DNA from: Stegostoma tigrinum
Lineage: Eukaryota
NCBI RefSeq assembly: GCF_030684315.1
Contig: NC_081369.1
Location: forward strand, 44,809,598 to 44,873,597
Direction: 5' to 3'
DNA length: 64,000 nucleotides
The notes beneath the pieces are model-generated. The model saw only the letters and a list, made by a program, of their open reading frames with translations, was not told the DNA's origin and did not search any database. Shown piece by piece: positions 7,954-48,036 of this stretch. Each line of letters begins with the position of its first letter. Position 1 is the first letter of the stretch. Both the position numbers and the translations under genes were made by a program.

Positions 7954-8158
7954 TCAGAGATAGTAGGAACTGCAGATGCTGGAGAATCCGAGACAATAAG
8001 GCGTAGAGCTGGATGAACACAGCTGGCCAAGTAGCATCAGGGGAGCAGGAAGGCTGATGTTTCGGACCTAGACCCTCCTTCAGAAAACCATCAGCCTTCC
8101 TGCTCCTCTGATGCTACATGGCCTGCTGTGTTCATCCAACTGTACATCTTGTTACCTC
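7954..8158. mobile_element. PLE family A hairpin mini-insertion (two inverted 3' ends)
   Basis: The long terminus tcagagatagtaggaac.. is on the left and the short terminus ..cttgttacctc on the right. The turn at ~8085 is next to the hammerhead core. Partial TSD tcatataa at 7941-7948 and 8157-8164. Confidence 0.88.
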
Positions 8159-9214
8159 ATATAACTATATCCTAGTTTTGAGGTTTGTGTATTCATTACT
8201 TTCTATTTCAGCCCAATTATAATTTTTCTCCCCTTTTAAGCATCTTGAAATATCTGCGTTGTTGTGTGCGTCAATACTTCTGTCTATCTGGCTGTTTATC
8301 TGCTTGCTTATGTTATTATTACTGCATACCAAGCAATCCCCCGATTTGGCATCAACATTGAACTTTTGTTGGAAAAGTGGAAAACTACACCACAGAAGTC
8401 ACACAATCTTTGTGGGCAGATTTCCTCAAGGTCAGTGATGGGTGCCCATTTCTTTGCCACCAACTGCAAAACTTGGGACTTTGCGGTTTACGCTCTGGAA
8501 GCTCAATACTACAAATAATGAGGTTTATACAAAGAATGTAAACCAACTTTATTTCACAGTTCACGTGAAAAATTTAGAATCTTTGTTTCCACAATCCCTG
8601 CATATAAATGGCCTTTATTGTACAGTGAACTTCAATTTTCACATGTTGTTGGTATAATACAAAAGACAAGCTTGAAGGGAACCTGGTCTAGATACTGGTC
8701 TGTATCACTGTACTCAAGCCAATGTTGTCCACAAGCATAGCTCTCTACAGGCATCAACAATTGAGTCTTTTAGGCTGTGTCCAACATCTAGTTTAGGGTT
8801 TTGAGAGCACCTTATCCATTAGGTGCTTGGCAATCAGACTAATGCTGGAAACTCCACTGCAGACAGCATTGAATACACCAAACACTCCACGTTAGATTGC
8901 ACAATCATTTAATGATAAAGGATGTGGAAAGTAGACTCCTTCACAGCTAGGAGCAGATGTGTTTTGCACATTGCCTAATGACAGCACAAAAAAATCATTT
9001 GGTTGCCTTGATTTGAATGCAGGCCCTGAGGAAGCTGCATCTTTTTTTCTCACCCTTAGCATTTGGTCAACATTAGAGAGGTTGCATTTTATTAGCACGG
9101 AGGGAATGTTGTTCTGTTATTATAACTAAGCAGTTTGCTTAACCATTTCTGAAAGCTTTAAGTTTAAACAATAAACTATAAACAAGATTCACAGGCAAAC
9201 TGAGTATTGATGAA

Positions 9215-9419
9215 AATTCCCCTCCTTGAAGGGTATTAGGAAAGCAGTTGCGTTTTAATGCAGAACAGCAGTGATCATGTTCACTCTTTCTGCTATTGTT
9301 CTACGTAGTACTAAACGTATTGAATTTAATTCTGTATCTTGTTGTGATAGGATTGGAAATCAAGGGCCCTGTTTTCTCCTTGTAGTACCTAACAGTTTCA
9401 GGAAGATAAATCACTTCCA
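9215..9419 (-). mobile_element. Very old copy of the tRNA-derived SINE seen at 38730-39385
   Basis: Loose similarity (cctccttgaagggtattagg...gaatttaattc...ggattggaa) to 39170-39310. Confidence 0.3.
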
Positions 9420-9500
9420 TCTAGGCCCAAAACGTCAGCTTTTGTGCTCCTAAGATGCTGCTTAGCCTGCTGTGTTCATCCTTCTTCACACTTTGTTATC
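9420..9500 (+). mobile_element. PLE family A 3'-terminal fragment
   Basis: tctaggcccaaaacgtcagcttttgtgctcctaagatgctgc...ctttgttatc. It begins inside hammerhead stem II and ends at the short terminus. Confidence 0.85.
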
Positions 9501-10048
9501 AACATTCATGAAGTTCACTTACACCCTGGCCATGGTGCTGAATCATCAAGATTGGGAAAACTAACGTCAGGGATCCATCTGCTTGTTGACATATCTGGAT
9601 ATTGTTTTATGCATAACATCTCATATATTCTTCTGATCACCCTTAAGAGGAATTTGACAGGAATAATGTGTTTCACAATGTTCAAGAAGATATACTTGCA
9701 ACCATTATTTGTAGATGCTGTTAGTTTCATACATGCAAACAACTTGAGATTGGAAAGCTGAAAATGAACTGAAATAACTGACAGAAAAAAACAATGTCAA
9801 GAAACAGTAGTGTTTTGGTCCAGAAACATGAGGTGGGCTAAGTAGTGAGAGATTAGGAAAATTGCCAACTATTGTCTTTCAAAGGTGGAAAGAGATGTAG
9901 AATAGTTTAGGGAGGAGAAAACTAGAGCGTAGGGTCAGGACTCTAGTATAGTTGTCCCAGATTATGGGGTGGAACTTCAAGGAACTCAACAAAGGAGATG
10001 AATTAGAGAACTAAAGTATTTGGAAAGGGATTCATATCTAAAGAAGGA

Positions 10049-10081
10049 TTAGGCTTAGATTAGGGTTAGGGTTAGGGTTAG
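10049..10081 (+). repeat. Short interstitial telomeric repeat (TTAGGG)3 with degenerate flanking units
   Basis: ttaggc ttaga TTAGGG TTAGGG TTAGGG ttag; the perfect part is 10060-10081. Confidence 0.75.
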
Positions 10082-10456
10082 ATGTAGAGTGGGATAGGCT
10101 GGGCAGTTGTACAGACTAGCATTAGGATTTTAAATTTGGAGCTTGGAAGGAATATTATGTATAGATGTATATAAATAGTACAGAAAAATAGTAGCTCATT
10201 GCACACTTGAGCATTCAGAATAGGCCAAACTAATGACATGCCATGATATTAGAGCATATGATTTAGCAGGTGCTTATGGTTAATTGGTTTATTAATTTTT
10301 GAAACAATGCAGGCAGAGTTTATCTTATACATGCCGGAACACTGAATTTTTACAAAGTAGACAAACAATGAAACAATGTGGATTCAGTCAGTGAAGTGGA
10401 AATCAACGTCCTTTCTTCATGATTAGAGTTGGTAGATATAAAAGGAGAACAAAAGA

Positions 10457-10680
10457 CCGTCTCATGGTGCAGTGGAAGAGTCCCTACGCCGGACCAAGGC
10501 TTGAGTTCAAGTTCAACCTGCTCCAAAGGTGATAGAAAAATAGGCTAAATTTTTAAAAATATATAAAGGGAGGACAGGTCTCTTGTGGTGTAGTGATAGT
10601 ATTCTATCTCTGGGTCAAGAGGCCCAGGTCCAAGTGCTGTCTGTAATAAAATCTTTAGACAAATTGGTTGGAAACTATCT
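10457..10680 (+). mobile_element. Two adjacent short tRNA-derived SINE copies (10457-10530 and 10577-10680)
   Basis: Each copy has an A-box-like TGGTG(C/T)AGTG and a B-box-like G(A/G)GT(T/C)CAAGT. The copies resemble each other and neither forms a cloverleaf. Confidence 0.5.
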
Positions 10681-11439
10681 TTCATGGGGAAATGGATGGG
10701 ATACGTTTATGAAAAAAAAACTGTAGGACTGAGCAGTATCTCTATCTAAACCTTATCCACAAAAAAAAATCTTGATTTCCGCTTCACTGACTAGCTTAAA
10801 TCCAAATTGTTTTATTGCTTTCCCACTTCTTAAATATTCAACGTTCCATACAAAATAAACTTCATCTGCATTGTTTCAAAAATCAAAACTTGGAACAAAA
10901 TCACAGGGCTAAATTGCAAAAACTGAAATAGCACAAAATGATCAGTTTTACACCTCCTGAAAAAAATTGGATTGATAACTCAATCATTAAAGAATTTTCA
11001 GCTGCTACAAAAATATTTAATTGCTGAAACTTTGCCATGCATTAATTGCAAGATTAACCTTACAATTATTGCATGGTTGTCAACTAGATTTTTACATTTT
11101 GTATGGTGGATGAGAGGGAACAAACAATCATTGGTCTTAACAACTGCCATCTGAAATGTACCACAAAGGAGCCCTTCAGCCTCGACAAATTATCACCAAT
11201 TTGCTTTTCTGTAGCTTTCATGTCAACATTCAAAATACATATTGTATAATTGGGATTGATTGATGAACTGGGGAGATAGGTTTGACACCTTCCAACTTCT
11301 GGTGCAAAACTGGTGAAAAATTGCGAACACCTTGAAATTTTGTCTCAGAGCTCACCTGTATGAAAGTGGAAAATGGTGAAAGCGTTTGGGTATTCCAATG
11401 CAATTCCAATCCTCAAGAATATTGGTCAGTTATTATGTA

Positions 11440-12160
11440 AAGCCCATCAGTCAATAGAAAAGCAGAATATTTTTTAGAAAGGTGTGAAAATTTTAAATGT
11501 TGATGTTCAGAGAAGTTTGGATGTGCTCACATGATGAACATAGAAAGTATGCAGTTTTGCCAAGCAACTAGAGAAGCAGGTGGAATTTGACATTTAGTGC
11601 AAGGGGATTGAAGTAGACAGGAATTAAGAAGACTCGCTGCAATTCTACTGGATTTTAGTGAGATAAATATCTGGATACTCTGTGCAGCTTTGGTCTCCAG
11701 GCTGAAGGAAGGATATCCTTGTCGTACAGGTGTTACAGCAGAGGATCATCAAATTGGTCTCTGGAATGAGGGGCTGGCCTTATTTTAAGAGATTGAGTAA
11801 ATTGGGACATTACTCTTTGGAATGCAGTTGAACAAGAGGTAATTTCATTGAAATGTAAAAGATTCTAAAGGAGCTTGATAGAGTGGGCATTCAGAGATTA
11901 TTTTTCTGTTGGTCTGAGAAGTTAAAAAACAGGGACAGAGTCTCAGGATAAAAAGCTACCATTTAGGACAGAGCTGAGAAGGAATTGCTTCATATGAATT
12001 CTCTATACCACAGGGTAATGGATGTTTAACCATTGAATATACGTATATATGGTTGAACTTGACTGATTTTTGGTTTCAGGGTTTAAATGCAGTTGAAGCC
12101 CAAGTTAAGCCATGATTGTATTGAATAGCAGATGGGCTTTATGATCTAATTCTTGTTTTC
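11440..12160 (+). mobile_element. Decayed CR1 LINE 3' fragment
   Basis: Residual motifs YSVQLWSPG..KDIL and RGNFIE, followed by a CR1-type 3' UTR (agccatgattgtattgaatagcaga). Confidence 0.75.
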
Positions 12161-12380
12161 TCATGAGTCTGTTTCTGCAGAAATGAATTTATTAACAGCA
12201 CCTCTGTCCTTTTGTCAGAAGCTTTTGGCATTCTCTTTGAGGATAACTAATTAGACTAAAGATTCAGTACAATTAGATGGAATATGTGCAATTTTTTCAT
12301 TGGGTCTCAGTCAAGCAAAATATTGTTTCCAAACCTCTCATCCATGCTTTCAATTCTCCACACAGCTTTTCCCCTCCCTA

Positions 12381-12534
12381 AGTAAATAAAAAAATGTGGA
12401 AGTTGAAATTCTGAAATAGAACCAGAAATTGCTGGAGAGACTCAACCGGTCTGGCTGCACCTGTGGAGTGAAAGCAGAGTTAACATTAGAACTCTTCATC
12501 AGATCTACTGAGTTTCGCCAGCAACTTCTGTTTT
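12381..12534. mobile_element. PLE family B hairpin mini-insertion with 14-bp TSD
   Basis: Inverted arms cagaaattgctggagagactca / tgagtttcgccagcaacttctg. The turn is at ctcttcatcag (CTGATGAAGAG on the minus strand). Exact TSD ttttcccctcccta at 12367-12380 and 12531-12544. Confidence 0.8.
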
Positions 12535-12944
12535 CCCCTCCCTATTTCTGTAATTCTAATTCATGCTTCATCTGCATTCCCAATTATAATTGCTCCAATA
12601 TTGCTGACTGTGCTGTCATTTGCTTGGGCCATTTTCTAGAATATTCTCCCCTGCACCTTTCTGCCTCGATTCCTCACTTTGCTCTTTTAAGACCCTCCCT
12701 CAAACATACCAAGTTTTGCTCACATGTACCAGTATCTCTGTGTATGGCCTGGTGTCACAGCTTGTTTTATAATGCTCCCATAAAGCATAATAAATACTAC
12801 ATTAATACAAGCCATTGCTAACCCCACCCATTTGACATTTAATTTCTATAATGGCTATGGAGCTATAGCCTCAAAGTGCAATGATTGAGTTCATTAAGCC
12901 TGTTTCAGCTTTATGCCCATACAACAAAAAAGTTTCCAATCAGC

Positions 12945-13280
12945 AATCTGCAGACAGAAAGACCATCTACATGCGCTGCACCTATTTCAATGCAACAAAA
13001 TGGATTACAGCTACTTAATAGTTTATTTCTCAGGGCAATTCCTGATCAATCAGAGTCAAACTGGCCAGTTTGAAATCTAAACAAAGCCTAGCAGTTAACA
13101 TCCAATCATCATTAACTGTTGCACTCTCCACGGCATGCCAGTATCAGAGTCCACTTGACAACCAGTTAGCACTCTTCTCTCATGCAGTATAAATGTTGGC
13201 TTTTACCCTTTGTTCATATTTTTGTGAGTCATCTTGAAAAATGCAAGATGAAAATCTTTGACAAAATGTGACATCTTTCT
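12945..13280 (+). mobile_element. Decayed 3' end of a third PLE-like family
   Basis: ICRQKDHLHALHLF (12946-12987) resembles GIY-YIG C-termini of the LCRQKE type. A decayed hammerhead-like gtc..ttgaaaa-atgcaagat-gaaa-atctttgac lies at ~13228-13262. Confidence 0.4.
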
Positions 13281-15762
13281 GAAATAATGCCTAAGCACTG
13301 TGTTCAAAATTGCTGCTTTCAAAATTTGCACGTTTCCAAACGTTTGTCAAGTGCTCAGTGATATGACCATGAAATGTATTTAAAAGTGAAGCATAACTAA
13401 CAACAAATTATTCCCTTTCAACTCATGCAAACGATCTGGAATACCATTCAGCCAGTAAATATTATAAAAGGGTTCAGTGGTAGATATGTGGACAATGTAG
13501 CTTCAAAAATGCAATTTCATTTCTAAATTTAACGTTCTACATTTTATTGGCCTTTGGACCTCTTATCCTAGTATAACATAGCTTGTCTCCCATTTTGGTT
13601 GAATTGTAAATTTAAAAAGAATTACAAATCTAATTGGAATAGCTGACCTATAATAACTAATACAGGACAAACACAGATCTTTATAAAGGTAAACACATTT
13701 GCACCACTTTATTTGACCCCTATCTACACATGGCATTAAAGTTGAAGAAAGAAAAATAAGATATAATAAATGCCATATGCAGAACAGTAATAAGGGCTCT
13801 CTGTGGTCTTTGAAAGTGTACTCACCATTCAATGGTTTCATATTTCATTCAGAAAACGACCCCTGATAAAAAGTTTCAAATGTTCAGAGCACCATTGTGA
13901 AGCCTATTAATACTATAGACAGTTATTGCATGTACTTTTCAGGTGCAGGCTTTGAGAGTGGAAATGCTTCAAGAACAAGGTATTCTTTTGCTTCTTTCCT
14001 AGAATTTTCATTCTTTCCATTTTATCAAAATCTTAAAGATTTATGTGATTACTGATTAATGCTGGCCAGATTTTCCATGGGATACCGAGAAATGAAAGTT
14101 CAAAGAGACACACAGTGTCAGCCTTTCCTGTTAGTTGTTACACAAATGTTGTACAAAAAAATAACAGAGGTACTGAACCACTTCAGAAATTTTAACGTCC
14201 AGCTCAATATTACAGAAGACTCGCTGCAATTCTACAGTTGATGTTTCCGATATTCATAATTGCTTGTAATAGTTTATTATTTTAAGTATTGTTGTGAATA
14301 ATATTAAAAGATCAATTGTGAAACAAACTATTTTATAAATAAATTATTATTTTTGCCATTGATTGAGGAACGTTGTAATGTAGGTGATATTAACAAACGT
14401 TGACAGTCTCTTTACATTGTAAAATTTAATATCCACGTGAGTGCAGTGCACCTTCAGAACCCAGGGGCCCAAATTCCTCTAAACCAATTTTCGATTGAGA
14501 ATTGTATGGAACAATTAAGTACGTATTTTAATTTCCGTGCTTCAGTTTACAGCAGGCAAACTTCCAAGGCTAATCATGCTACTGGTTGGCAATTTGCATA
14601 ATGTGGGAAGATTGCAAAAAGCAGGCCTTCCTGACACAAATAACAGCTGGCAAGGTGCTCACAGGCTGCAGGCAACTGCAAACCTGCTTTGCAACTGTTT
14701 AAATGGTAAAAGAAGTAAATGCTGCCAAAACCTACAGGTACTCTGATGCTGGTTTAAGTATCCTTGCACAGGGGTGTAAAGAAAGTTACTATATCTATTG
14801 TGAGGCTTGAAGCAGAAATAGGATTCCCCGACAAGTGTTCTAGCTACAAAGTAGAAAAATATTCGATGTCCTGACAAATGTGCAAAGGTGAGATCCCAAA
14901 ATCTCATCTCTGCTAATCCCCGCTCTGCTCTTCCTTAGTCCACATATTCACACTGCATTCCACCACTTGCCTTTACTCACCTACGATATGTGCAGAACAC
15001 CCCTCACACAGATACTGCCATGCACTATAGCTGCAGTTCTCTTCTTTGACTTACCCATGCGCACATTTTTTTTCACCTCATGACAGCAATGCTCGAGACA
15101 TTTGATCTGCCTATCAAATACACAGTAGAAGCTGGCATATAGCACACACCCTATTAAATTTATAATATGGTAAACCTGCTGCCCTGCTGAAAAATGTAAA
15201 TCATTGAACTTTTAATTGTTTTAATGCCTCCATTGGGAATAAAATTTTTAAAAATCGTCTTGGAATACAGCCCTTCCACCATACCTGATGCAACAATGGA
15301 TGGTAAACTGGCTGATGTCACCTGTTGGAGGGTGGCATGACCCATTGACATTGAAAATAAAGGGCCACTTGACAACAGTGTTGTCCATGCTTTGGAAACA
15401 AGTAATGTAGTTTGGTGACAAATTCGAGAAGGAGAGTGCCAACAATTCATTACTCATCCATTGTTGGTGCCAAGGTAAGCATATTGATCCAATGACACAT
15501 TGTGCCACAGGCGTTTCTAAGGTAGATGAGTTATTCTCTCTTTAGATACATTAGTGTGATAGCACTGATGCCAAGATTCTCTGGGAATAGTTAATGTTGA
15601 TCAGCAAACTGCCCATTATTTCCATCTGTTAGTATGCTTTTTCAGTTTACCCACCAGATATCACTTGGATTAGCCTAAAAGTGTCAGATACGGTTTGAGA
15701 GCTTCCTCATAGACTGGTTGAGGTCATTGACCCTACTTGTGTGAACTGTTTCAGCAATATTT

Positions 15763-16077
15763 GGGGTGGCACAGTGGTTAGCACTGCTGCCTCACAGCAC
15801 CAGGGTCCTGGGTTTGCTTCCAGCCTTGGGTGACTGTACGGAGTTTGTACACTCTCCCCATGTCTGTGCAGGTTTCCTCCCACAGTCCAAGGGTGTGCAG
15901 GGTAGGTGGACTGGCTGTGCTAAATTGTCCGTAGTGCCCAGAGATGTTTGGGTTCAATTTGTTAGACATGGGGAAATGCAAGGTTAGGGGAATGGGTTTG
16001 GGAGGAATGCTCTCCAAAGGAGTGGTGTGGACTTGATGGGCTGAATGGCCTGTTTCCATGCTGTAGGGATTCTTTGA
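15763..16077 (+). mobile_element. HE1-like V-SINE
   Basis: tRNA head (ggcacagtggttagcactgctgcctcacagc), V-domain (ggtttcctcccacagtccaa) and CR1-like tail (ggcctgtttccatgctgtagggattc). Confidence 0.9.
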
Positions 16078-16194
16078 GTACAGAAAGAGTGTATTTGGCA
16101 TGGCAGTGCTCCTGTTTCTGACTTTCTAAGTTGGGCATTTCTACTGAAGAAATTGACAGAGTAAGGTTCCAGTCACTTTAATTCACTCCATGTC

Positions 16195-16385
16195 TTCAGA
16201 ATTCCCTTCCTCAAAAGGCAGTGGATTCAGAATTTTTAACGCAGTGCTAGAAGGATTCTTGATTACCAAGTGGATGAAAGATTACCAGGGATAAGCAGGA
16301 ATGTAAAGTTGAGGTGAAAATCAAATCAGCCATGATCTTTTTGAATGGCACAGTTGACTCAAGGGGCCTAGTAGTCTACTCTTGT
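16195..16385 (+). mobile_element. CR1 3' terminal fragment
   Basis: aattcccttcctcaaaaggcagtgga...atcagccatgatcttttgaatggc...ctactcttg. Confidence 0.7.
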
Positions 16386-16413
16386 TGTTTTTCAAATGCT
16401 CTCAACACCGTCT

Positions 16414-16630
16414 AGCAGGGTGGGTCAGTGGTTAGCATTGCTGCTCAACAGAGCCAGGATTACAGGTTCAATTCCAGCCTCAGAATGACTACATGCTCAA
16501 TGACATCTACCACACAAATTGAGGAAATCAATGGTGTGTTTGAAATGTAAATGCTAATCTCTTTAGGGGTTGGGTCAGTGCAGACTTGTTGGCCCAAAGG
16601 GCCTATTTCTACACTGAAGGGATTCTATAG
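16414..16630 (+). mobile_element. HE1-like SINE head and tail with the central domain replaced by ~75 bp of unrelated sequence
   Basis: The head (16414-16491) and tail (16568-16630) match other HE1 copies; no V-domain lies between them. Confidence 0.65.
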
Positions 16631-17419
16631 CTGGAGGAGAATGAACACAGATTTCCAGAACCTACAGTATTTTACTTTTATTTAAGCACAAGACCAAGAA
16701 TGGGAATAGGTTGACTGGTCATACTTTGGCTTCAGACTAATGTACTATGTAACAAGATTCACAGTTGATGGAATAATAACACAAAAATAATTTTTAAGAA
16801 GCAAAAAGTTCAAATTGACACAGTGTTTCGAGAAATATCAACATTTTTGTCAATATATTCTGAAAATTATTCTCAAGCAGTTGAATATTTCACACAATAC
16901 AGCTCTTGAGTTAGAGTAGACCAACCACTGACAGGCAGTGTTCATGATATACTTGTAATGTAGAAGAGCTAGAGGTTTAGCATTTAGAAAGTTTTCACTA
17001 AAGGAGTGCTATTGAATATTTGAAGCAAGAGGTGGCAAAAACAAGTCCAGACCAAAAGTCAGCTATAAAATGTCAACACATGAAAACATATTGGGCTCAA
17101 AATTAATTTCCAGCTAAGGTACAAAATAGAGGGTATCTGAAGGATCACCCATTTATTACACACAGAACCTATTACTCAGTTTCAGTAAATGCAATGGACT
17201 TAAATGTAACCAGGTTAAATATCATTATTCATGGTGAATAATATGCAATTGATCAGATAATTCCCATTTTGTGCCACTGCAGGGGACAATTCTTTCAGCC
17301 AGCAGAGTTTGCTTTTTGGGATTGTGGCAGGCATAAGTATTACAATTTGGAACTTCAGCTAGATGACACAGTACTGAGCAAGTTTGAGCTAGTTCTGGTA
17401 CGTTGGAAGTGTTTTTCAG

Positions 17420-18243: not shown

Positions 18244-18516
18244 GTCTACAGTGTGATAGCCTATACTCATTTACGAGGTGATATTGCTGGTCTTGAACTT
18301 ATTTGAAAGTGTGCTGGAGAGGGAATTCTCATCTGTTTATAAATTATCAATGGGTCTGTAATAAGTTGGCAAATTCCAGTTTTCCAGATCAGTTAACAGA
18401 TTGAACAAATAAACCCATCTCTAAAATCAAAATATTCAGATATTTAAATTTTCAATGAACAATTATTAATTATGTTAATGGTATGCATTGATTATTTGTA
18501 ATCAATCTTAACAGAT

Positions 18517-21599: not shown

Positions 21600-22870
21600 T
21601 CTTAATTATATTTTCCCAAATCTGAAAAGAACCACTTGGATACACACTGTGGTCCAAGACAATTTTGGTGTCGAGGATAGGATTTGGGAAAATGTGTAAG
21701 AGAAGAGAAAAACAACCTGATACTCCGGAGACCTTCCATATTCCAGGGTGGAATGCAGCAGATTCTTGTTTTGGGTCTGTAGCTAAGACACCTATATTGC
21801 CTCATTTGATGACCTTTCCAAGATATCATCTCTCCTCACCACTGTATTTGATTCCTTAATTAATATTGCAACCTCCCCCCTTTTATTCCCTCTCTGTCAT
21901 GTTTGTATACTTTATCACCAGGAATGTTGAGTTGTCAATATTGCTCATTTTTCAGCTAAGTCTTGTTCATAGCCATGATATTGTACTGCCATGTGCCTAT
22001 CCGTGTCCTTAGCTTCTTTGTCTCATTCCTAAGGCTCCTTGCATCAAAGATGCATTGTATTTAGCCTTGTATCAGAGATAATGGGAACTGCAGGTGCTGG
22101 AGAATCTGAGATGTCAAAGTGTGCAGCTGGATGAACACAGCAGGCCAAGCAGCATCTTAGGAGCACAAAAGCTCCTAAGATGTTGCTTGACCGGCTGTGC
22201 TCATCCAGCTCCACACTTTGTTATCTTGTATTTAGCCTTGTTGAACTCACTTCTTTCTCATCTAGACTACATTTCCTCTGCCATCCACACTCATTTGTGC
22301 TTTAAATTCTAATTCCATCTCTGCTTCTGAATCCTCTGAACTACTTATTAGAATCTCACTCAAGCCAGTCTGGTTTAAATCTTCCCCCATGGCAGCTGCA
22401 AGACCTGACTCTGAGGATGTTGGCTCCCTTCCTGTTCAGATGTAACCTATTCAACTTTTGCAGGTTCCACCTACCTACTAGCAGTCTCAGTGTCTCAGAA
22501 ATCTAAAGCCCTCCCTCCTACACCACGTCTACAGCCCCACCTTCATTTGCTCATTCCTTCTAATCCTATACTCACTACTTTGTGGCACTGGGAGTAATCC
22601 AGATATCATTATCCTTGCCGTCAATCTCACCTCCTAAAGTCTGCTCACAGGATGTAATTTCTCTTTCTTCCTGTGTCATTGATCCCACCATGGACTGCGA
22701 CCTCTGACTGTTCACCTTCCCCTCCAGAATGCCCAGTGTAGCTGTCCCTTTACCACCTTGATCCTGGCACCCAGGAGGCAACAATACCATCCTGGATTCC
22801 CACCTACACTCTCAAAAACCCATGTCTGCTACCCTCACAAACAAATCCCCTATCACCGTTGCTTTTCATG
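21600..22870 (-). mobile_element. Old CR1 5' region: APE start and ORF1 SGNH/esterase remnants
   Basis: Minus strand reads CLPGARIK..GEGEQSEVAVHGGINDTGRKR (frameshifted) at ~22660-22790, and IPPWNM/LISWK-type APE-start remnants at 21730-21830. Confidence 0.7.
22071..22226. mobile_element. PLE family A hairpin mini-insertion with 16-bp TSD
   Basis: Exact TSD ttgtatttagccttgt at 22055-22070 and 22226-22241. Long terminus on the left, short on the right; turn at ~22171. Confidence 0.92.
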
Positions 22871-23701: not shown

Positions 23702-23838
23702 GAGATAACAAAGTGTGGAGCTGGATGAACACAGCAGGCCAAGCAGCATCTCAGGAGCATAAAAGCCGACGTTGCGGGCCTAGACCGTTCTGATGTTATC
23801 TCGGATTCTCCAGCATCTGCAATTCCCATTATCTCTGA
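23702..23838. mobile_element. PLE family A inverted mini-insertion with 15-bp TSD
   Basis: Exact TSD ttaaaaggaatggag at 23690-23704 and 23839-23853. Short terminus on the left, long on the right; switch at ~23790 at the hammerhead motif. Confidence 0.92.
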
Positions 23839-24544
23839 TTAAAAGGAATGGAGCCAATTTTCATTCCTCACTTGCTGCTAGTTGATGATTACATAATTAA
23901 ACAATCAGTTTAAACATATGAAACAGCAAAAGAATTATTGCTACTATTAATTGCAGCCCATTAAAAAAAACTATAGAAATTGTCAAAATCATTCCAAAAA
24001 ATAAGGGGTCAACTTACTAGTATAAAATGGGAACTACTGGTGTGAAAGTAGATGTGAGTGATCATTGCTTTGTACTTTATATAAAACATATCACTAGAAT
24101 TCAGATTAACAATGTAGGACAGTGTACAGAATTAATTCAACAAGGATACCTTTAGCCACACTCAAAGCATTTTACAAGTACAAAATTCATTGCTTTCAAC
24201 ATCTGGTGCAAGGAGTTTATCAAATTCATTCTGAGTCACTGAAGGTATGGTAACATGGTAACGCTCCCACGTTGGATCACGTTTATCATGTTCACTTTCA
24301 GAAACATCTCGCCCGCAACAAATCATCTTCCTCTCCAATTACTGAACTAGATATTACGTATTTATCAACTAATCTGATGATTGTTTTTGCAATAATAGCA
24401 TACAATGATTTATAGATGAAACTACAAAATACCATGCGGCACCTGCATATTTTTATTCCCTATGAAGGTTTTTTTTTCTCTGTCATCCATCTACCTACTC
24501 CAATCACACAAACCTGATTCATGAATAGCTTGTTGAGGCACATA

Positions 24545-36479: not shown

Positions 36480-37790
36480 GTGGAGATTAGAAAGAATGGA
36501 AAAAGAAATGATTGGTTTCAGTTAGACCTGAAAATGGAAGAATAAAGCAACAGAACAGAAGCTACAATGTAGCAAACAAAACTAAAGGAAAGGCGGATGA
36601 GAAGAATTTGTGATGCCAGAGTAAAGCAAAATGTCTCAACTGGGAAGCAAGACTAAGACCAGGAAAAACACACAGAAGTATATAATTAATTGGTTGATAT
36701 AAACGAGCCTGGACAGAAAGAGTGAAATAAAAGCATCGAAGGGTTCCCAGAATAAAAACAATTAAAATGGGAACCGCACCAAGCCAGGTGCTAAAAAAAG
36801 GACTACCAGAAGAATGGAATATGCAAATAGTAATGAAACAACAGATGTAAGTAGAGCAGAATAGATCAAAAGGTGAGATCATTGGAAAGCATGTAAAACG
36901 AAGGATTTTAATGACACTCCATGAGAGAATTCTATTCAATATGCAGTTTCTGAAGAAATAAAGTATTACAGCGCTAAAAAGAGTGAGAGCTTTACACAAG
37001 GATAAAGACAAATTAAGGATGCTCGAGAGGAAGAAGAATAACAACTAACCAAACATACGGGGAGCAACCTCATTGAGTGTATGTCTAGACATTCAATATC
37101 CAGAAATACTAAGGAATATGTATCCAACCATAGCAGCAGCATATTGAACCAAGATAGAAGTGTGGTAACAAGGTGCAGAGCTGGATGAACACAGCAGGCC
37201 AAGCAGCATGAGAGGAGCTGTTCATCCAGCTCTACACCTTGTTATCTCAGATTGTCCAGCATCTGCAGTTCCTACTATCTCTAGAAATGTGGTAAAGCAG
37301 TTAAACCAACAAAGAGTGAAGTAGCCAGGAAACATTGGGCTTAAAAAGAATATTGGAGAAGATCAGCCTCGAAAGAACATGAAAAATATCACTTGCAATG
37401 GTTTGAAGAATATAAGGAATAAATGGTGCAGTTGTCAGCTCTCAAGTGATACACATTCAGAGGTTTGGAATATGCACAAAGGCCACAGAATTGTACACTC
37501 TCGGGGTTCAGGTGAAGGATCCAAGCTCCAAGAAAAAAGCAAAAAGTTAGCAAATGGTTTGGGAGAAAAGGGGAGGTTTCCACAGGTGAAAGTAATATTT
37601 TGTACTGTGAGAAGAAATAATTAAATAATCTTTCACAAGTATCAATGGCACAGAGCGGTTGAATTTTTAAAAAGAATTCTTTAAGGTACATCATATCTTA
37701 AACTTTGAACAAATATGGGGTACCTAAAGTTAATTTTGAGGGATTTAATTGATGATTTCATTATAGGTGGGAATGTTTTGAGATGGTAGC
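36480..37790 (+). mobile_element. Very old CR1-like ORF2 remnant
   Basis: Purine-rich tract with faint, correctly ordered motifs: YNVA.., HGF-like at ~37555, F.KVHH at ~37680 and DD..IGG at ~37750. Confidence 0.4.
37166..37282. mobile_element. PLE family A hairpin mini-insertion with 14-bp TSD (1 mismatch)
   Basis: TSD tagaagtgtggtaa at 37155-37168 and tagaaatgtggtaa at 37282-37295. Short terminus on the left, long on the right. Confidence 0.9.
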
Positions 37791-38729: not shown

Positions 38730-39385
38730 CTTTTTATTTTATTCATTCACAAGATGAGGGTGTCACTGGCTAGGCCAGCATTTATTGTTCATCTTGTCCA
38801 GTTAAGAAGCACCTATATTGCTGTGGGTCTGGAGTCACAGTGGCTCAGTGGTTAGCACTGCAGCCTCACAGCACCAGGGACCCAGGTTCAATTCCAGCCT
38901 CGGACGACTGTCTGTGTGGAATTTGCACATTCTCCCTGTGTCTGCGTGGGTTTCCTCCGGGTGCTCCAGTTTCCTCCCACAGCCCAAAGATGTGCAGGCT
39001 AGGTGGATTGGCCATGCTAAATTGCCCATAGTGTTCAGGGGTTTGTGGGATATAGGGGGATAGGTCTGAGTGGGATGCTTCAAGAGGCTGTGTGGACTTG
39101 TTGGGCCAAAGGGCCTATTTCCACACTGTAGGTAATCTAATCTACTGTTAGACTAGGCAAGGATGGCAGTTTCCTTCCTTAAAGAACATTAGTGAATCAG
39201 ATGGGTTTTTCTGACAGTTGACAATGGATTCTTGGTCATTATTAGACTCTAAATTCCAGATTTTCTTTTTATTCAATCAAAATTCCACCATCTGCCATGG
39301 CAGGATTCAAACCTGGGTCCCCAGAAGATCATCTGGGTCTCTGGATTAACAGTCCAGCAGTGATACTACAAAGCCATCACCTCCC
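38730..39385 (-). mobile_element. tRNA-derived SINE (non-HE1) whose tail matches the second LINE family; interrupted by an HE1 copy
   Basis: On the minus strand: head GGGAGGTGATGGC..GGTTTGAATCC, body TTCACTAATG..AGGAAGGAAACTGCCATCCTT..GTGACTCCAGACCCACAGCAAT, tail AATAAATGCTGGCCTAGCCAGTGAC..GAATGAATAAAA. Confidence 0.75.
38836..39143 (+). mobile_element. HE1-like V-SINE nested in another SINE
   Basis: Head, V-domain (tggaatttgcacattctccctgtgtctgcgtgggtttcctccgggtgctcc) and tail ending taatctaatcta. Confidence 0.93.
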
Positions 39386-39899
39386 TATCATTGCACCAAA
39401 ACAACAACTTCATGATGTCCAAAGATCTGCAAGGTAGCAGTGAGCTGCCATTTTTATGAAGGTGACAGCTGAGCAGCAGTTCTGGGGAAGCATGTTTTCA
39501 ATCCCCATGTCAAAACACTCACTTGCCTTTGCCTGACATTGCCAGTAGTAATTGTATATTCTTAATGGTAGCCACCACTGGCCCACCCACTACTTTAACA
39601 GCAAATAATATGCCATGGCGATAGAAAGTAAGGTAGCTAAACAATAGCAAAGTTACTTATTGATTGGCTCAATAAGAAATATCTAATAAATGTTTTGTGT
39701 TTTAAATGCTTTACAAGTGTGATACTTGCCACACACAAGCCTTGTGTATGAGCTTGACACAGCTGCTTTTCATTCAAATGTGTCACAGAATATAATGGCA
39801 ACACAAAAAAAAACCTTCTCATTTTAAATGAAAAATGATATTAAAAACACAAATCAAAATTCCAAGCAGAAAGTTGAAGACATTTGTTGAACAGTGCAT

Positions 39900-41190
39900 T
39901 TTAAAAAATTGCATTTTAGATGGGCATCACTGACAAGGCCAGTATTTTTGCTCATCCCTCAATGCTTTTTAAGGTGATAGTCAGTTGCTTTCTTGAACCA
40001 CTGCAGTCCACTTGGTGTCAGGAGACCCACAATGCCCTTAGTGAAGAAGTTTCAGGATTTTAGTTCAGACAATGCAGGATTGGTAGTGCTACAGTTCCAA
40101 GTCAGGATGGTGAGTGACTTGGAAGGGGATTTGCACATAATATTGTTATCACGCATTTATAAACCTGTTCTTCTATGTGGTACCTATAATGAGATAAGAA
40201 GATACTGTTGAAGGAGAATTGGAGATGCTACAGTGCATCTTTTTGGTGGAAAACTACATTGTGCCTTCTAGAAGCAGAGGGAATCAGTTTTTTAAGGTGG
40301 TCGATATGGTGCTAATCAGACAGGCTGCACAGTGATGAGCTTTTGAGTGCTGTTGGAGGTGCACCCATCAAGGCATGTGAAACTGTAACATGCTCTTGTA
40401 GCTATAATATTTACATGCTGGTCTTGTTCAGTTTCTTGTCAATGGTCATCCACAGGACTTTGGTGCTTGTACATGCCAGATAACAGGATGAATCTGAGAT
40501 AGGATTTGAGAAAGGCCTAATGGCTTGATATAATATTGTTCGGAAAATCTCATGGATGCCGAGTGATGTGGGTTTATGTGTTAGTGGGGAATTCAACAAT
40601 GATAACGCCATTGAATGTTCAGTCCCAATGTTGGAAATGTTCATTGCCTGGCTCTTGTCAGAAGTCTGCCACTTATCAGCCCTAGTCTAAATATTGCCCA
40701 GACACCTGAAGAGTTGCAAATGATGTTGAACATTGCAATCATCAGTGAACATTCCCACTTCTAATCTCACAAAGATAATTGAAGAATCAGCTAAAGATGG
40801 TTGGATCAGGACAATATTCAGAGGAGGTAGTAGTCTCCAGCAATCACAACAATCTTCTGTTTTGCTTGGTATGGCTCCAACCAGTGAAACATTTTCCTGG
40901 ATTCCCACTGATCCCAGTTTTTCATGTGATGCCTGATGCTACACTTGATTAAATACTGCCTTGATGTGATGAACAGTAATTATCGTTACACCTCTAGAAT
41001 TTAGGCACAAGGCTATAATGTGGTCAAGAGCCAAGCAGGTCACCACACAAACTAATGACAGTAAATAGGTTTTTGCCAACTAAGTACTACTTGATAGCCC
41101 TGTTGATGACAACTTTCATTACCTTGCTCATGTTTGAGAGAAGACTGAGGATGAAGTAATTAGATTCTCTTGCTTTTCATTGATGAGGTG
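39900..41190 (-). mobile_element. Second LINE family: 3' end plus RT remnants
   Basis: Tail at 39900-39960. Minus-strand MFTDDC (FADD motif) at ~40735-40752 and DIKAVF (DIKAAFD) at ~40945-40965. Confidence 0.8.
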
Positions 41191-41240
41191 TTTGTCGCCA
41201 TTTCTAAAAGTTCGCAACAAAACTTGCTGTTAAAAGAGCT

Positions 41241-41457
41241 TCAGAGATAGTAGGAACTGCAGATGCTGGAGAATCTGAGATAACAAGGTATAGAGCTGGA
41301 TGAACACAGGAGGCCAAGCAGCATCAGAGGAGCAGGAAGGCTGACGTTTCAGGCCTAGACCCTTCTTCTGAAGAAGGATCTAGGCCCGAAACGTCAGCCT
41401 TCCTGCTCCTCCGATGCTGCTTGGCCTGCTGTGTTCATCCAGCTCTACACCTTGTTA
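41241..41457. mobile_element. PLE family A hairpin mini-insertion with 13-bp TSD
   Basis: Exact TSD tgttaaaagagct at 41228-41240 and 41453-41465. The centre ccttcttc-t-gaagaagg at 41369 lies on the hammerhead core. Confidence 0.93.
41368..41395 (+). ncRNA. Minimal hammerhead-like motif (N7=A variant)
   Basis: CTGAAGA-A-GGATCTAGGCCC-GAAA-CGTC. The core boxes are intact, but stem II has one mismatch and the motif is buried in a long hairpin. Confidence 0.45.
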
Positions 41458-42799
41458 AAAGAGCTGTTGGATATAAGATGTAATCTGTATGACACAGCAG
41501 ACACTGCACAGCAGAATCAATAGCAAAGTGAAATTAATAGCCCAAATGATGTCAACATGTAAACTAACAAGGCAACAAAGTAAATACACTAATTGCACAG
41601 CTTTTTAAAACAGTGAGCACAAGCACGGTGGGCTGAAAAGCCTCATTTCATGTTGTAAAATTCTAGGAATCAATGACTCTAAGATGTTCAGAAGCCATTA
41701 CAGCTGTAAAAGTGAAATTACAGCTTTCAATTTCAACCCGACCAGCCTATTAGCTCTTTCTTTACAGCCTTATCAACCTGAAGTGTTGCCTTTAATGTCT
41801 TGTGAACTTATATCACCAAATCCCTCTGCTTTTCAACAGCATCAAGTCAACTCGCATTCAGAGCATAATTACCATGTTATTTTTCTTAAGCAAAATTTAT
41901 CATCACCTCCTTGCTGATAATAAACACTATCAGCCATTTTAGCCCATCCTGCCATCTTATCAATATGTCTTTGCAGTTTTCTTTTGTCCTTCTAAATAAT
42001 GAATTACAATTTATAAGAACTTATCATCGGCAAATTTCAACATCACTTCCTCTAAGCTTATATCTAACTTGTTAATATACTCAGAAAAATTAAAATGAAA
42101 CATGTAGAACTGCAGTACACATTTCCAACTTCTCTGAAAAACAGCACTTGAAACTGTTAATCTGCTTTCTTCCTTCTAACGAACTTTCAATTCAGTTCAC
42201 TATCGTCTTTCAAATTCCTACTCCATATAAATCTTCACTACAGAATACATCTTCTCTTCTACCAATGTTGCTCTTCATGTTTATTTGGATGAGGAAAGTT
42301 GAGAAAAGTCTTCAAAGAAGTATAAAAACTGACTTGGATTGGCTGAATCAAATGGCCGTTTTCTGTATATCTCCTTTAGAATATTAGTATCCCAACCCAC
42401 ACCAAATGCTTATATCTCAGTCATTATTTTGAAGTTTTCAGCCAGGTTTTCTAATAAATTTTATTAAGTTTAGATCCTCCAAATACTTGAATCCAGTTCA
42501 TGTCAATATGCAATAAATGAATTTTAACATTTACATTCTTTTTATCAAACAACTTATTTCTCATAGTTCTTCTCTTTAAACTCATCGCTGTGCTCACTCC
42601 CTGTAATCTTGACCCTGATCAGAACTGATGCACTTTATTCAGTCTTTCTTTGTTGCATATGTCTCTTACTGGATAGCTATCTGCATGGCTATTGGTCTCA
42701 TCGCCTTCTACCTTCACCAGTCGGTGATCCTGGTTAATTTAGTATTTCCAGAAGCCCCAGGTAACATTTGATGATTTATCAGTACAAACCCACTTCTGA

Positions 42800-43021
42800 T
42801 ATAAAACAAAAATTGCTGGAAAAGCTCAGCATGTCCAGCAGCACCTGGGAGAGAAATTAGTGCTAATGTTTCAGGTTAAGTGACGCTTCCTCAGAACTGA
42901 GGAAGTTAACAGAAATTAACTTTGATTTCTCTCCATAGGTGCTGCCAGAACTGTTGAACTTTTCCAGCAAATTTTGTTTCTGTATCTGATTTATAGCATT
43001 TGCAGCTCTTCCAGTTGTTAT
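42800..43021. mobile_element. PLE family B hairpin mini-insertion
   Basis: Arms aaacaaaaattgctggaaaagctcagca / tgttgaacttttccagcaaattttgttt. Centre cttcctcag-aa-ctgaggaag (42886-42905). Possible degenerate TSD ccacttctgata (42790-42801) / ccagctctgata (43022-43033). Confidence 0.8.
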
Positions 43022-43068
43022 CCAGCTCTGATACAGCTGACTCTTGGAGAACAGTGCCCAGCTGACCC

Positions 43069-44944
43069 AGATAACAAGGTTTAGAGCTGGATGAACACAG
43101 CAGGCTAAGCAGCATCTTAGGAGCAGGAAAGCTGATGTTTCGGGCCTAGAACCCTTAATCAGAAATGGGTGAGGGGAAGGGAGTTCTGAAATAAGTAGGG
43201 AGAGAGAGGGCGAGGCAGATCGAAGATGGATAGAGGAGAAGATAGGTGGAGAGGAGACAGACAGGTCAAAGAGGCTGGGATGGAACCAGTAGAGGTGAGT
43301 GTAGGTGGGGGATGGTGACAGGGGATAGGTCAGTCCAGGGACAATGGACATGTCAAGGTCGCGCTAATGAGGTTAGCAGGTAGGAAATGGGGTGTGACTT
43401 GAGGTGGGAGGAGGGGATAGGTGAGAGAACGAACAGGTTAGGGAGGCAGGGACAAAGCTGGGCTTGTTTTGGGATGCAGTGGGGGGGAGGGGAGATTTTG
43501 AAGCTTGTGAAATCCACATTGATACCATTGGGCTGCAGGGTTCCTAAGCGGAATATGAGTTGCTTTTTCTGCAACCTTCAGGTGGGATCATTGTGGCACT
43601 ACAGGAGGCCCAGGATGGACATGTCATCTGAGGAATGGGAGGGGGTGTTAAAATGCTTCGTGACTGGGAGATGCAGTTGTTTATTGCAAACCTAGCATAG
43701 GTGTTCTGCAAATACGTCCCCAAGCTTCCGCTTGGTTTCCCCGATGTAGAGGTGGCCACAACGGGTACAGCGGATGCAGTATGCCACACTGGCAGATGTG
43801 CAGGTGTACATCTGCTTGATGTGGAAAGTCTTCTTGAGGCCTGGGATGGGAGTGAGGGAGGAGGTGTGGGGGCAGGTGTACTAATCCTCACATACCACCC
43901 CACCAAACTCCGGATCCAACGCATCATCCTCCAACACTTCAGCCATCTGCAATCTGACTCCACCACCAAAGACATTTTTCCCTCCCCACCTTTGTCTGCT
44001 TTCTGGAGGGACTATTCTCTCCATGATTCCCTTGTCCACTCCACACTCACCTCCAGCCCCACCACACCCAGCACTTTTCCCTGCAACCGCAGGAAGTGCT
44101 ACACCTGCCCACACACCTCACACCTCACCCCCATCCCAGGCCCCAAGGAGACTTTTCACATCAAGCAGATGTTCACCTGAATATCTGCTAAAGTAGTACT
44201 CTGCATCCGCTGTACCCGGTGTGGCCTCCTCTACATTGGGGAAACCAAGCGGAGGCTTGGGGACCGCTTTGCAGAACACCTCCGCTCGGTTCGCAATAAA
44301 CAACTGCACCTCCCAGTCGCAAAGCATTTCAACTTCCCCTCCCATTCCTCAGGTGACATGTCCATTCTGGGCCTCCTGCAGTGCCACAATGATGCCACAC
44401 GAAGGTTGCAGGAACAGCAACTCATATTCCACTTGGGAACCCTGCAGCCCAATGGTATCAATGTGGATTTCACAAACTTCAAAATCTCCCCTCCCCCCAC
44501 TGCATCCCAAAACAAGCCCAGCTTGTCCCCGCCTCCCTAACCTGTTCCTCCTCTCACCTATCCCCTCCTCCCACCTCAAGTTGCACCCCTATTTCCTACT
44601 TACCTACCTCATTCTGCCCCCTTGACCTGTCTATCCTCCCTGGACTGACCAATTCCCTCCCTACCTCCCCACCTACGCTCACCTCTACTGGCTCCATCCC
44701 CCCCTCTTTGACCTGTCTGTCTCCTCTCCACCTATCTTCTCCTCTCTCCATCTTTGATCTGCCTCCCCCTCTCTCCCTATTTATTTCAGAAATCCCTTCC
44801 CTTCCCCTATTTCTGATGAAGGGTCTAGACTCGATACATCAGCTTTCCTGCTCCTAAGATGCTGCTTGGCCTGCTGTGTTCATCCAGCTCTGCAGCTTGT
44901 TATCTCGGATTCTCCAGCATCTGCAGTTCCTAATATCTCTGATA
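43069..44944. mobile_element. Large inverted PLE family A insertion: minus arm 43069-43880, plus arm 43881-44944, 14-bp TSD
   Basis: Both arms encode GIY-YIG remnants, and the plus arm also has LILTYHPTKLRIQRIILQHF (RT thumb/linker). Exact TSD ccagctgacccaga at 43058-43071 and 44945-44958. Confidence 0.95.
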
Positions 44945-46643
44945 CCAGCTGACCCAGAGTTGAGTTCATATTCAAACAAATCGAAAGGTCCCTTATTGCC
45001 ACCTTTAAGCATTCATTAATTTCCCTAAACCTCTTGTCCTTTCCTATTCTCCTATTTCGACAAAAGTGATCCCGATGTTACCACATCAGAAGTCCTGGAT
45101 CAAAATTTGTCTCTTAAACTCATAAATACATTGCTTTACTTTCTATACATCACTAGCTCCTACAAAACACATAATAACTGTATTTTTCAACACACTTTGA
45201 ACTAACTTTTCAAGCCCAGGCACCATGTCCCTAGTGCAGTGAAAACTGATGAAGCAACAAAGCATCTTGAACTTTTTGTCCCGAATGCAAAACATCAAGG
45301 CAGTTTTCTCTGACTTCTGAATTGCTTATCACTAGTATGTTCCATACCTGCTATTTTTTATAGATGTTATTTATTGTGTTGTTTGGAAACAAACAGTTAT
45401 TAAATGACATGAATGGTTTTTCTCACTCTGCGAATTATGGGAAAGGTAGCTCCAAGTGGACACTAAGCATTGAGAGAAAAAGTTTGTCAAGTGGGCTACA
45501 AACATAAAGCTTATAAGATTGTATATTTTGGGACTTGTCTCTCTACCCTAGGGTAAAGTGCAGGAATAAGGGTGTCATGTGACTGTTCTGAATGCCAGCT
45601 GACAATAAGTTAGGGTATCTCTGATATTAAAGGTTAAATGTGGGCCCAGACTGCATTACTTGGAAGAAGATATAAAATTAAAAAGCCATGAAGAGGCAAG
45701 CCTTAAATCCCCTTTATCCACTGTCTGTTGGTCTTTGTTGGTCATTAACATCTCTGATTGAGCCTTTCCATTCTTGATTCTGCCTCAGAAACAGTGGTCC
45801 GTGGACAGATTGACACTGGCAAATCAGCATGCTGTCCAACAGAGAGGTATTTTGTGCCATCCTGCTCCCCCAGCCTCACACCCCACCCCCCCACCTCACT
45901 TGTCCATGGTAAGGAGGAAACATTGCCTTCTGAATATTTGACAAGGCCATAATGCATATAACAACATCTAAATAGTTAATGATATTCCCAAAATAGTGAC
46001 TTTTCATGAATAATTTTGTAACTGATTCAATTGCTTCTTTTTTCATATGTCCATTAAAGAATATTTCTGCAATATTTTTACGGAGAGAGAACCTGCAACC
46101 TACTAAATATGAGGAGTCCATTCTCTCTCTCTCTTAACTCTCTCACTGCCAGTAAAGCAGGAGATGCGATTTTGTTTAGTAATGCAATATGCTAAGGTAA
46201 TGACTTCTCCTCGCAAATTTAATATGCTCTTTTATATGAATGCATATAGGGTGCATTAATCAACTATACCTTCAATGTCACTGAACCACCACATACTACA
46301 AGTGATTAAGGAATCAGTTCTTGCATGCTGTTCTTGAGTCACTTGGATGAAGTCCACAATATGACAAACAAAACTAGTGATAAGAGCAGCGGTCTGTAAG
46401 TGGCTGACTGCTCACTGTGCCATTTTATTTCATGAAAACCGGGCAATCAGAAAGATTTTGAAAGAAAACAGTAGGAGTCCAAAATTCAGCCAATCTGGCA
46501 GTTTTGTTGGTTTTGTTATTCCCTGTAATTCAGGCATATTTTCGACAATCATGTAAAATGCAGAATCAAACAGGAACTACATCATCCTCAGATTCAGTTC
46601 CTCTCTTCCTACTCTGTACTCAGTATTTTCTTATACCTTTGTG

Positions 46644-46707
46644 CAAGGCCAATAAATGAAACTTTGATGAATAAACAAGGCCAATAGATGAAACTCTGAT
46701 GAATAAA
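46644..46707. repeat. Tandem duplication, 2 x 32 bp
   Basis: caaggccaataaatgaaactttgatgaataaa / caaggccaatagatgaaactctgatgaataaa. Confidence 0.85.
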
Positions 46708-46779
46708 TAGGAAGCAACTATTCTTATTAAAATAAAATCTCTCTCCCCCAACTCACTTCTTATTCTGTAGATAAAGCTA

Positions 46780-47210
46780 TTTCCAACAGTAAAACAAGCT
46801 TGATGAGAATGTTTTCAAGGTTTAGAAGATTGTGAGGATAAATTGGAGAAATTTAGACTATTTTCCTTGGATAGGAGAAACCTGAGGGGAACTTTGACAG
46901 AAATTTTCAAAATTATAGGGAGTCTAGACAAAGTAGAAATTGAGAAACTGCTCATGCTTGTGAAACGAGGGCACCAATTTTAAAAAAAACATCTTTTATA
47001 CACATTGAGTGGTCTGGGTTTAGGAAAAAGGTCTAGAAGTGTGGTGCAGGCAGGTTCAATTAAAGCCATGAAGAGGGCATTAAATGATTACTTAAATTTA
47101 AAAAAAAAACAAGGTATGTGGAAAATGCAGAATCTATTACTAACTTTAAATACTCAGTAAATTGGTGCACATACAATGATCTCCTTCTATACTATAACGA
47201 TTCTGTGATT
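46780..47210 (+). mobile_element. Decayed CR1 3' fragment
   Basis: LFSLDRRNLRGNLTEIFKII.SLDKVE remnant. Confidence 0.7.
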
Positions 47211-47821
47211 CACACCATACACCATTCTCTGACTCAGAATTCTTCGTCAAGCAATTTATTCTCAGCCATCTGTCAATACCACTTCAACTAACCACAGGAG
47301 CACTATTTTCCCAGTCCATCAGAGGCAGGTTGGAGGATGAATTGGGTGTGAATGTCCTGGAAGTTGGCATTGGTCAGGATCCCGTCACAATCCGGTCCTT
47401 CCTTTGTCAAATTGAATGTTTCATCTCATTGGTCTCCCATCAAGAGTCCACCAACCCCGAGGCAAGATGCCAGTTGGACTGCTTTGGGAAAGAGGAGATG
47501 CGAATCTCAGATTCCCTACAGGGAAGATATCCAATCTTACTGGCTGAGGATAAGAGAGTAAAATTCTACTTAATGTTTCTACTCAACACTTTCTATAGAA
47601 AGACTGGCAAAAGCTGCAACTTATATATAAGCTAAATTCCACATGAAGCAGCATCCTCATGCACAACAGAACAGGCTACAATCTCAAAACTCCAGATACA
47701 ATACCAGCTGATATTCCATAGTTTGAAAGCATATACACACATTTTACTTTGCCCTTTTATCCCTTCGCTGCAACATAGCAGTTTCCCTTCCTTCTTCACC
47801 CCAAATAACTCTATAATGGTA

Positions 47822-48036
47822 TCAGAGATAATGGGAACTGCAGATGCTGGAGATTCCAAGATAATAAAATGTGAGGCTGGATGAACACAGCAGGCCAAGC
47901 AGCATCTCAGGAGCACAAAAGCTGACGTTTCGGGCCTAGACCCTTCATCAAGGGTCTAGGCCCGAAACGTCAGCTTTTGTGCTCCTGAGATGCTGCTTGG
48001 CCTGCTGTGTTCATCCAGCCTCACATTTTATTATCT
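47822..48036. mobile_element. Very young PLE family A hairpin: perfect 87-bp inverted arms, 12-bp TSD
   Basis: 47859-47945 is the exact reverse complement of 47950-48036, with loop catc. An extra 37-nt tail occupies 47822-47858. TSD tctataatggta at 47810-47821 and 48034-48045. Confidence 0.96.

Follow-up and report, generated by a model that had tools for sequence, protein, structure and literature searches.

Penelope-like elements (PLEs) that encode an endonuclease have been described, in the accessible parts of PMC8557442 and PMC3846280, as units with a reverse transcriptase (RT) plus a GIY-YIG domain at the C terminus that insert head to head with an adjacent 5'-truncated copy, carry a 30–40-bp tail on one arm only, make target-site duplications of 8–18 bp and form partial tandems. 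These traits are shared by two related PLE families, A and B, in the 64,000-nt stretch of Stegostoma tigrinum analysed here (assembly GCF_030684315.1, NC_081369.1, positions 44,809,598–44,873,597, forward strand; hereafter the window). Whereas 5' truncation is reported in those parts of the two papers without a described hotspot, the copies in S. tigrinum pile up at one site, the 5' edge of a hammerhead ribozyme motif, which is probably where the element's RNA begins and would explain how PLEs make hairpins.

The green anole element Poseidon PAc shares with our families a pair of internal RT start sites (putative in ours) at the limits of the tail, and a hammerhead at the junction between pseudo-long terminal repeat (pLTR) and open reading frame (ORF); in the accessible part of that study (PMC11167929) the starts of complementary DNA (cDNA) were mapped, while the 5' ends of genomic copies were neither mapped nor tied to a promoter. 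Drosophila virilis Penelope, whose internal promoter was mapped in the pLTR (PMC2377424), and Adineta Pen2a (PMC3846280) share an initiator-type start inside the pLTR, upstream of the ORF. In D. virilis, however, 46 nt plus an intron separate the mapped start from the hammerhead downstream according to the available text of PMC2377424 and PMC4209133, whereas the start inferred here lies at most 4 nt from the core. The minimal type I hammerheads of metazoan PLEs share the core boxes, an extra base before helix II, a palindromic helix III stub and a short helix I (PMC4209133, as far as accessible, where pairs of motifs on opposite strands 100–700 bp apart are also noted); the role proposed there, cleavage of precursor RNA, leaves no excess of breakpoints here. 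Element type, inversion and tail are already known (accessible parts of PMC8557442 and PMC4209133), and the assembly of inverted and tandem pLTRs and the role of the hammerhead are treated as open questions in the literature available to us. Searches of the openly accessible literature, subscription papers aside, turned up neither a hotspot of 5' ends at this edge of the hammerhead nor any connection between such a hotspot and a promoter.

Breakpoint and pair statistics come from 145 evenly spaced 10-kb loci (1.45 Mb) on the large contigs of this 3.2-Gb genome. Both families are, on sequence grounds, endonuclease-positive PLEs. A 634-aa open stretch of family A (sample locus L200) matches RVT_1 (E 2.5e-5) and then GIY-YIG (E 0.002), both under the Pfam cut-offs, while positions 2–319 of the window pass the GIY-YIG cut-off; family B loci match the 634-aa family A ORF at about 35–58%. 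The pLTR and partial tandem arrangement is present, with terminal sequence continuing into the ORF start and further copies after it. On a scale where C3 of CTGANGA is 0 and negative positions lie upstream of the core, 3' ends cluster at +87..+98 and +124..+130, i.e. about +92 and +128. A third recurrent 3' end lies about 110 nt beyond the tail (about +240; sample loci L167–L195 near the ORF start, and L006 near 1394); joined in many tandems to variable 3' untranslated positions, it may be a preferred re-priming or jump site.

The motif has the CUGANGA and GAAA boxes, helix II and palindromic helix III stub of a minimal type I hammerhead. Helix II is paired in 92–96% of 135 family A matches and 73–79% of 33 family B matches, and pair 15.2/16.2 is C-G in 90 of the 135. 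Helix I has 4 bp in family B (52–76% paired, truncated copies included) and 2 bp in family A; a D. virilis hammerhead with a 2-bp helix I appears in the accessible part of PMC4209133. An Rfam scan of the window returned no hammerhead match.

To locate breakpoints, each arm was aligned to a panel of natural read-through copies with self matches excluded. Arms less than 40 nt from a locus edge, alignments scoring below 50, 3' ends before +60 and the window itself were removed before counting, and expected counts at the edge were derived from the rate of ends at +10..+45. The families were counted separately; family B copies mixed in inflate the family A peak and an apparent excess of G. Two piles of ends were discarded as artefacts: one at the predicted cut site, produced by a reference (window 44100–44943) with a mutated GAAA box and gone with the natural-copy panel, and one at +2 in family B, due to one mutated family B reference.

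There is a sharp peak of breakpoints at the motif, as the initial annotation had proposed, and a smooth truncation distribution is rejected: in family A, 80 of the 311 arms have their end at −7..0, where 8.0 would be expected (Poisson p ~1e-50), and in family B 37 of 131 do, against 4.9. The family A end rate per base forms a cliff, with 0.068 at the edge, 0.0068 downstream and 0.003 upstream. When a 2.1-kb natural copy served as reference, 70 ends fell at the edge and at most 6 in any of 245 upstream 8-nt windows; one upstream window of higher hazard (5 ends) sits at the start of the reference and is a boundary effect. The same peak is seen in three family A subfamilies that differ in their bases at −4..−1. 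Divergence upstream of the core was ruled out as its cause, because that stretch is conserved among read-through copies.

The edge is not specific to hairpins: it is kept in arms that do not belong to short pairs (36/181 against 3.2 expected; 14/65 against 2.9), many of them adjoining unrelated DNA. Among 46 copies spanning pLTR to ORF start, gathered by similarity search and hence not random (one locus is counted doubly per list), 24 reach the core, of which 10 end at −8..0, 4 end further upstream and the other 10 read through; 8 of 21 tandem copies downstream of ORF sequence start at −7..−2. An edge common to unpaired and tandem copies is not accounted for by fold-back, microhomology or hairpin collapse on their own.

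The predicted cleavage site, about 28 nt downstream, shows no such pile: at +26..+31 there are 12 family A ends (hazard 0.0075 against a background of 0.0068) and at the family B site 5 ends (0.0077 against 0.0151). An arm near 22171 had been annotated, with some ambiguity from microhomology, as stopping at the cut, which these rates make a coincidence. Cleavage as the cause is thus unsupported, and the data argue that it does not set the ends of insertions.

The nine inverted PLE insertions annotated in the window are all present, and six of them do switch arms at or next to the CTGANGA core, with an arm start at −6..+5. Clear target-site duplications of 13–16 bp flank seven of the nine, with weaker ones of 8–9 bp at 7954 and 42803. 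These nine, a lone stub and a tenth insertion beyond the range first annotated (7954..48036) are:

7954–8162: family A head-to-head mini-insertion; tailed arm 7954–8086 (− strand) to −3, short arm 8085–8162 (+ strand) from +20; weak 8-bp flank repeat.
9420–9500, + strand: unpaired family A stub starting at +11.
12382–12533: head-to-head insertion of family B type; left arm to the CTGATGA box (12502, − strand), helix II deleted; 14-bp target-site duplication.
22071–22226: family A pair flanked by a 16-bp target-site duplication; the tailed arm reaches +28 and the short arm begins at +37.
23703–23839: family A pair flanked by a 15-bp target-site duplication; the short arm reaches +5 and a tail-only arm begins at +85.
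37166–37282: family A pair that switches past the motif on its downstream side (+37, +64); 14-bp duplication, mismatched at one base.
41241–41457: family A pair; arms at −2 and −2, joined via a quasi-palindrome at −1..+3; 13-bp duplication.
42803–43021 (right end approximate): family B pair; left arm to −6, right arm from the core (0), helix II deleted.
43066–44945: long inverted family A insertion with the RT/endonuclease 3' region; 14-bp target-site duplication; no switch at the motif.
47821–48036: young family A pair; arms at +1 and +3, 87-nt arms 100% complementary; 12–14-bp duplication.
62788–63613: the tenth insertion, long and inverted, of family A; it has a TATA-like box at 63461 and its core at 63495.

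The stub at 9420 does start within helix II, as annotated, although it belongs to the ordinary downstream shoulder of the distribution and so carries no weight as evidence. Helix II is missing, or the core is joined to a downstream site, in window arms at 12490, 23790 and 42905; small internal deletions beside the core may be common.

By the time it stops, at the motif's 5' edge, RT has already crossed the motif, and this point falls together with TATA- and initiator-type motifs. Among family B read-through copies, 7/8 carry TATAAA from −33 onwards and 7/8 carry TCAGTT with its A at −4, the latter matching TCA+1GTY. In family A, a TATTTA-type box occurs at −33..−35 in 41 of 42 read-through copies, and a BBCABW initiator or a TCT motif at −4 or −5. 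With +1 set at −4, the upstream T of the box falls at −29..−31 in both families (−29 in family B), within the range of −32..−28 given for TATA boxes (TATAWR), along with the initiator and TCT consensus sequences, in the accessible part of PMC5580651. At random sites such boxes occur in that range at 0.5–0.8%. Read-through family A copies in the window display the arrangement:

2–817, + strand: read-through family A copy; GIY-YIG stretch at 2–319, TATA-like box at 691, core at 725.
44181–44537, + strand: GIY-YIG endonuclease domain match in an open stretch (E 3.3e-4, slightly below the Pfam cut-off).
44778–44783, + strand: TATA-like box TATTTA of a read-through copy, 31 nt upstream of the inferred start site.
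44806–44813, + strand: the −7..0 edge of short copies, with an initiator-type motif and an inferred +1 at 44809 (motif definitions from the available text of PMC5580651).
44813–44841, + strand: minimal type I hammerhead motif, from core to predicted cut site, with the GAAA box mutated in this copy.
44900–44943, + strand: tail, delimited by the recurrent 3' ends near +92 and +128, putative RT start sites (compare the accessible part of PMC11167929).

In family B (e.g. sample loci L259–L266; window 42925–42942) a pyrimidine tract that ends in CAG just before a downstream ATG resembles a 3' splice site; the family A counterpart, an ATG at +46, opens a frame, with a stop near the tail end in three translated copies.

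We put at roughly 0.6 the probability that the edge is the RNA 5' end, that RT primed in the 5' pLTR runs off it and that two target-primed cDNAs are then joined head to head. Mechanistically, the TATA-type and initiator-type motifs would likely set the RNA start about 4 nt before the core, and the transcript would carry the RT start sites twice, in a 5' and a 3' pLTR. Priming in the 3' copy would yield long, randomly truncated cDNAs, while priming at the two tail sites of the 5' copy would run off at the RNA 5' end and give stubs of 95–135 nt. These would be akin to the minus-strand strong-stop DNA that LTR elements make, likewise a short cDNA running off at the 5' end of the RNA; here, on the other hand, there is no tRNA primer and no true LTR, and a strand transfer would be presumptive. 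One nicked target end would prime at +128 and the other at +92; end joining of the two cDNAs at their 3' ends, frequently by way of the short palindromes found at the edge, would produce an asymmetric hairpin with a variable target-site duplication. A single cDNA would leave an unpaired stub, and a jump back into the RNA a tandem. The stubs lack the TATA-type box and so would not re-amplify from their own promoter. In the accessible part of PMC11167929, PLE RT initiates internally at two sites that delimit the tail and insertion does not require hammerhead cleavage, and a putative TATA box plus initiator is described for a rotifer PLE pLTR in that of PMC3846280.

The promoter reading predicts capped RNA ends about 4 nt before the core. 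A broader version, which we entertain only tentatively, would make strong-stop-like cDNA a regular PLE intermediate: RNA would start at the first base of the hammerhead, the tail-primed leader cDNA would jump back or be captured in pairs, and the hairpins would be aborted intermediates. If true, the jump back into RNA builds the tandem pLTR structure, and the hairpins are a genomic record that shows, accurate to a few bases, where the RNA starts and where each of the two primings occurs.

Several observations weigh against placing a promoter at the edge. The family A TATTTA deviates from canonical TATAWR, the family B initiator is one mismatch from human BBCABW, and the youngest subfamily has a TCT-type motif in place of A+1. 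The motifs were spotted after the edge and the families are related, so that they amount to about two observations and not fifty. Just upstream of the edge there is no excess of G such as cap copying might leave (family A G:A 23:30 against a control of 11:15). Ends are spread over 8 nt, with 27 of 80 at −5..−7, upstream of the proposed +1, a number inflated by chance matches to a C-run. The 10 of 24 core-reaching ORF-start copies that read through indicate that longer templates exist. Finally, family B helix I occupies exactly −4..−1, so that structure and promoter coincide and are inseparable here. Assembled RNA contigs from four runs have loose ends at about −3, +92 and +128, which merely repeat the junction pattern of the DNA and were not counted as evidence.

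That coincidence, with the edge at the 5' base of helix I, is a point for another origin of the RNA end, in which a 5'-to-3' exonuclease degrades a longer transcript down to the hammerhead fold, or to a protein bound there, and RT runs off the trimmed end. The initial annotation had held that the ribozyme fold or its cleavage sets the stop; cleavage is unsupported, and the fold survives in this form, which we consider rather unlikely. Predicted monomer folds open the hairpin at about position 0, the 8-nt spread and the missing cap-derived G would suit a trimmed end, and the anole PLE hammerhead is protein-assisted (PMC11167929, accessible part). Yet monomer folding of four motifs was no better than that of shuffled sequences (z −0.13 to +0.87), the edge is equally sharp in family A with its helix I of just 2 bp, and trimming leaves the TATA-type boxes 29–31 nt upstream in both families unexplained.

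The element's own GIY-YIG enzyme could instead cut a cDNA or DNA intermediate at a fixed distance from a binding site in the tail. The distances from edge to 3' end are similar in both families and for both 3' ends, and, in the available text of PMC11167929, the anole PLE enzyme cuts its own ORF–pLTR junction at ATT while the Drosophila enzyme requires the tail for recognition. We regard this as improbable: a subfamily that has CTCT and lacks ATT at the edge has a comparable peak (34/99 against 26/55 arms), and a nuclease gives no reason for promoter-like motifs there.

The anatomy of the pairs bears on fold-back, in which a cDNA or antisense transcript would fold over at the motif and serve as its own template, the route that the accessible part of PMC3846280 proposes for head-to-head PLE palindromes. 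A pair usually consists of one long (tailed) and one short (tail-less) arm (family A, 61 of 66; family B, 30 of 34) and never of two long arms; of the 61 tailed arms, 6 break off at +78..+96, close to the other start site. Target-site duplications of 8–18 bp flank 40 of the 66. Self-priming would account for the short palindromes at the edge, for overlaps at 24 of 66 family A junctions and for the private variants that both arms of one insertion often share (mate identity 0.915 against a median of 0.861). The best unrelated copy is closer than the mate in 42 of 49 pairs, so that arm identity cannot tell one RNA template from two. Fold-back needs the tailed arm to be made first and to reach further 5', whereas it is the short arm that does so more often (36 against 12 family A pairs, p 7e-4; 16 against 8 in family B, p 0.15). 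Bases are inserted at 34 of the 66 junctions, with 8 blunt, and the edge is identical in unpaired and tandem copies. The literal fold-back of the initial annotation is therefore disfavoured, and we think it quite improbable.

It is very improbable that nothing but hammerhead cleavage, hairpins collapsing later or local microhomology determines the breakpoints, a reading largely refuted by the unpaired-copy peak, despite 1106 exact copies of one palindromic centre and the one window arm (22171) at the predicted cut, for unpaired copies joined to unrelated DNA cannot collapse, neither family has an excess at +26..+31, and the anole element does not need cleavage in order to insert, with no reads ending at the cut in the accessible part of PMC11167929.

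The centres in the window are all different, as first noted, and 65 are distinct among the 66 family A pairs of the sample; this does not extend to the whole genome, where exact copies number 37 for the centre at 47947 and 1106 for the 41369-type centre (a 29-mer). Among those sharing an exact centre, the tail lies left in 5, right in 5 and on neither side in 1 (11 of the 37), and left in 3 and right in 7 (10 of the 1106), with differing subfamilies. Tails on either side and differing subfamilies point to convergence through local microhomology and not to a master element, so that recurrent centres apparently arise by convergence and the hairpins are not amplified miniature inverted-repeat transposable elements (MITEs). 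The claims that independent events produced these palindromes, and that MITE-like products of PLEs arise without a transposase, are both supported.

MITEs are short, palindromic, non-coding insertions of high copy number, and the likeness is evident, as a whole insertion here is often just two leader arms of about 110–240 bp. The hairpins differ in that the arms are asymmetric, the target-site length is not fixed and there is no master copy. Nor are they non-LTR retrozymes, which are head-to-tail tandem units each with a complete hammerhead (accessible part of 10.64898/2026.07.22.740005), whereas the window elements are head-to-head pairs or single stubs. At 69 pairs per Mb, the sample extrapolates to about 220,000 pairs genome-wide (180,000–268,000), and the origin proposed here would explain this estimated number of short palindromes that could be mistaken for MITEs or for microRNA hairpins; weak matches of the hairpins to microRNA entries were indeed returned from Rfam.

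Some minor observations concern the sample and the rest of the window. Four sample loci on one contig (L017–L020, 72.7–78.8 Mb) contain the same PLE copy with identical 250-nt downstream flanks, which suggests a recent segmental duplication or a duplication in the assembly. Window positions 10292–10886 contain inverted repeats that have degenerated (about 74% over 115 nt), and the 1.45-Mb sample has no further copy of them. A fragment at 54838–55735 resembling a long interspersed nuclear element (LINE) has 293-nt arms that are 97% complementary, and its relatives in the sample are not inverted. Two open frames at 2604–4551 (− strand) resemble the reverse transcriptase of a CR1/L2-type LINE.

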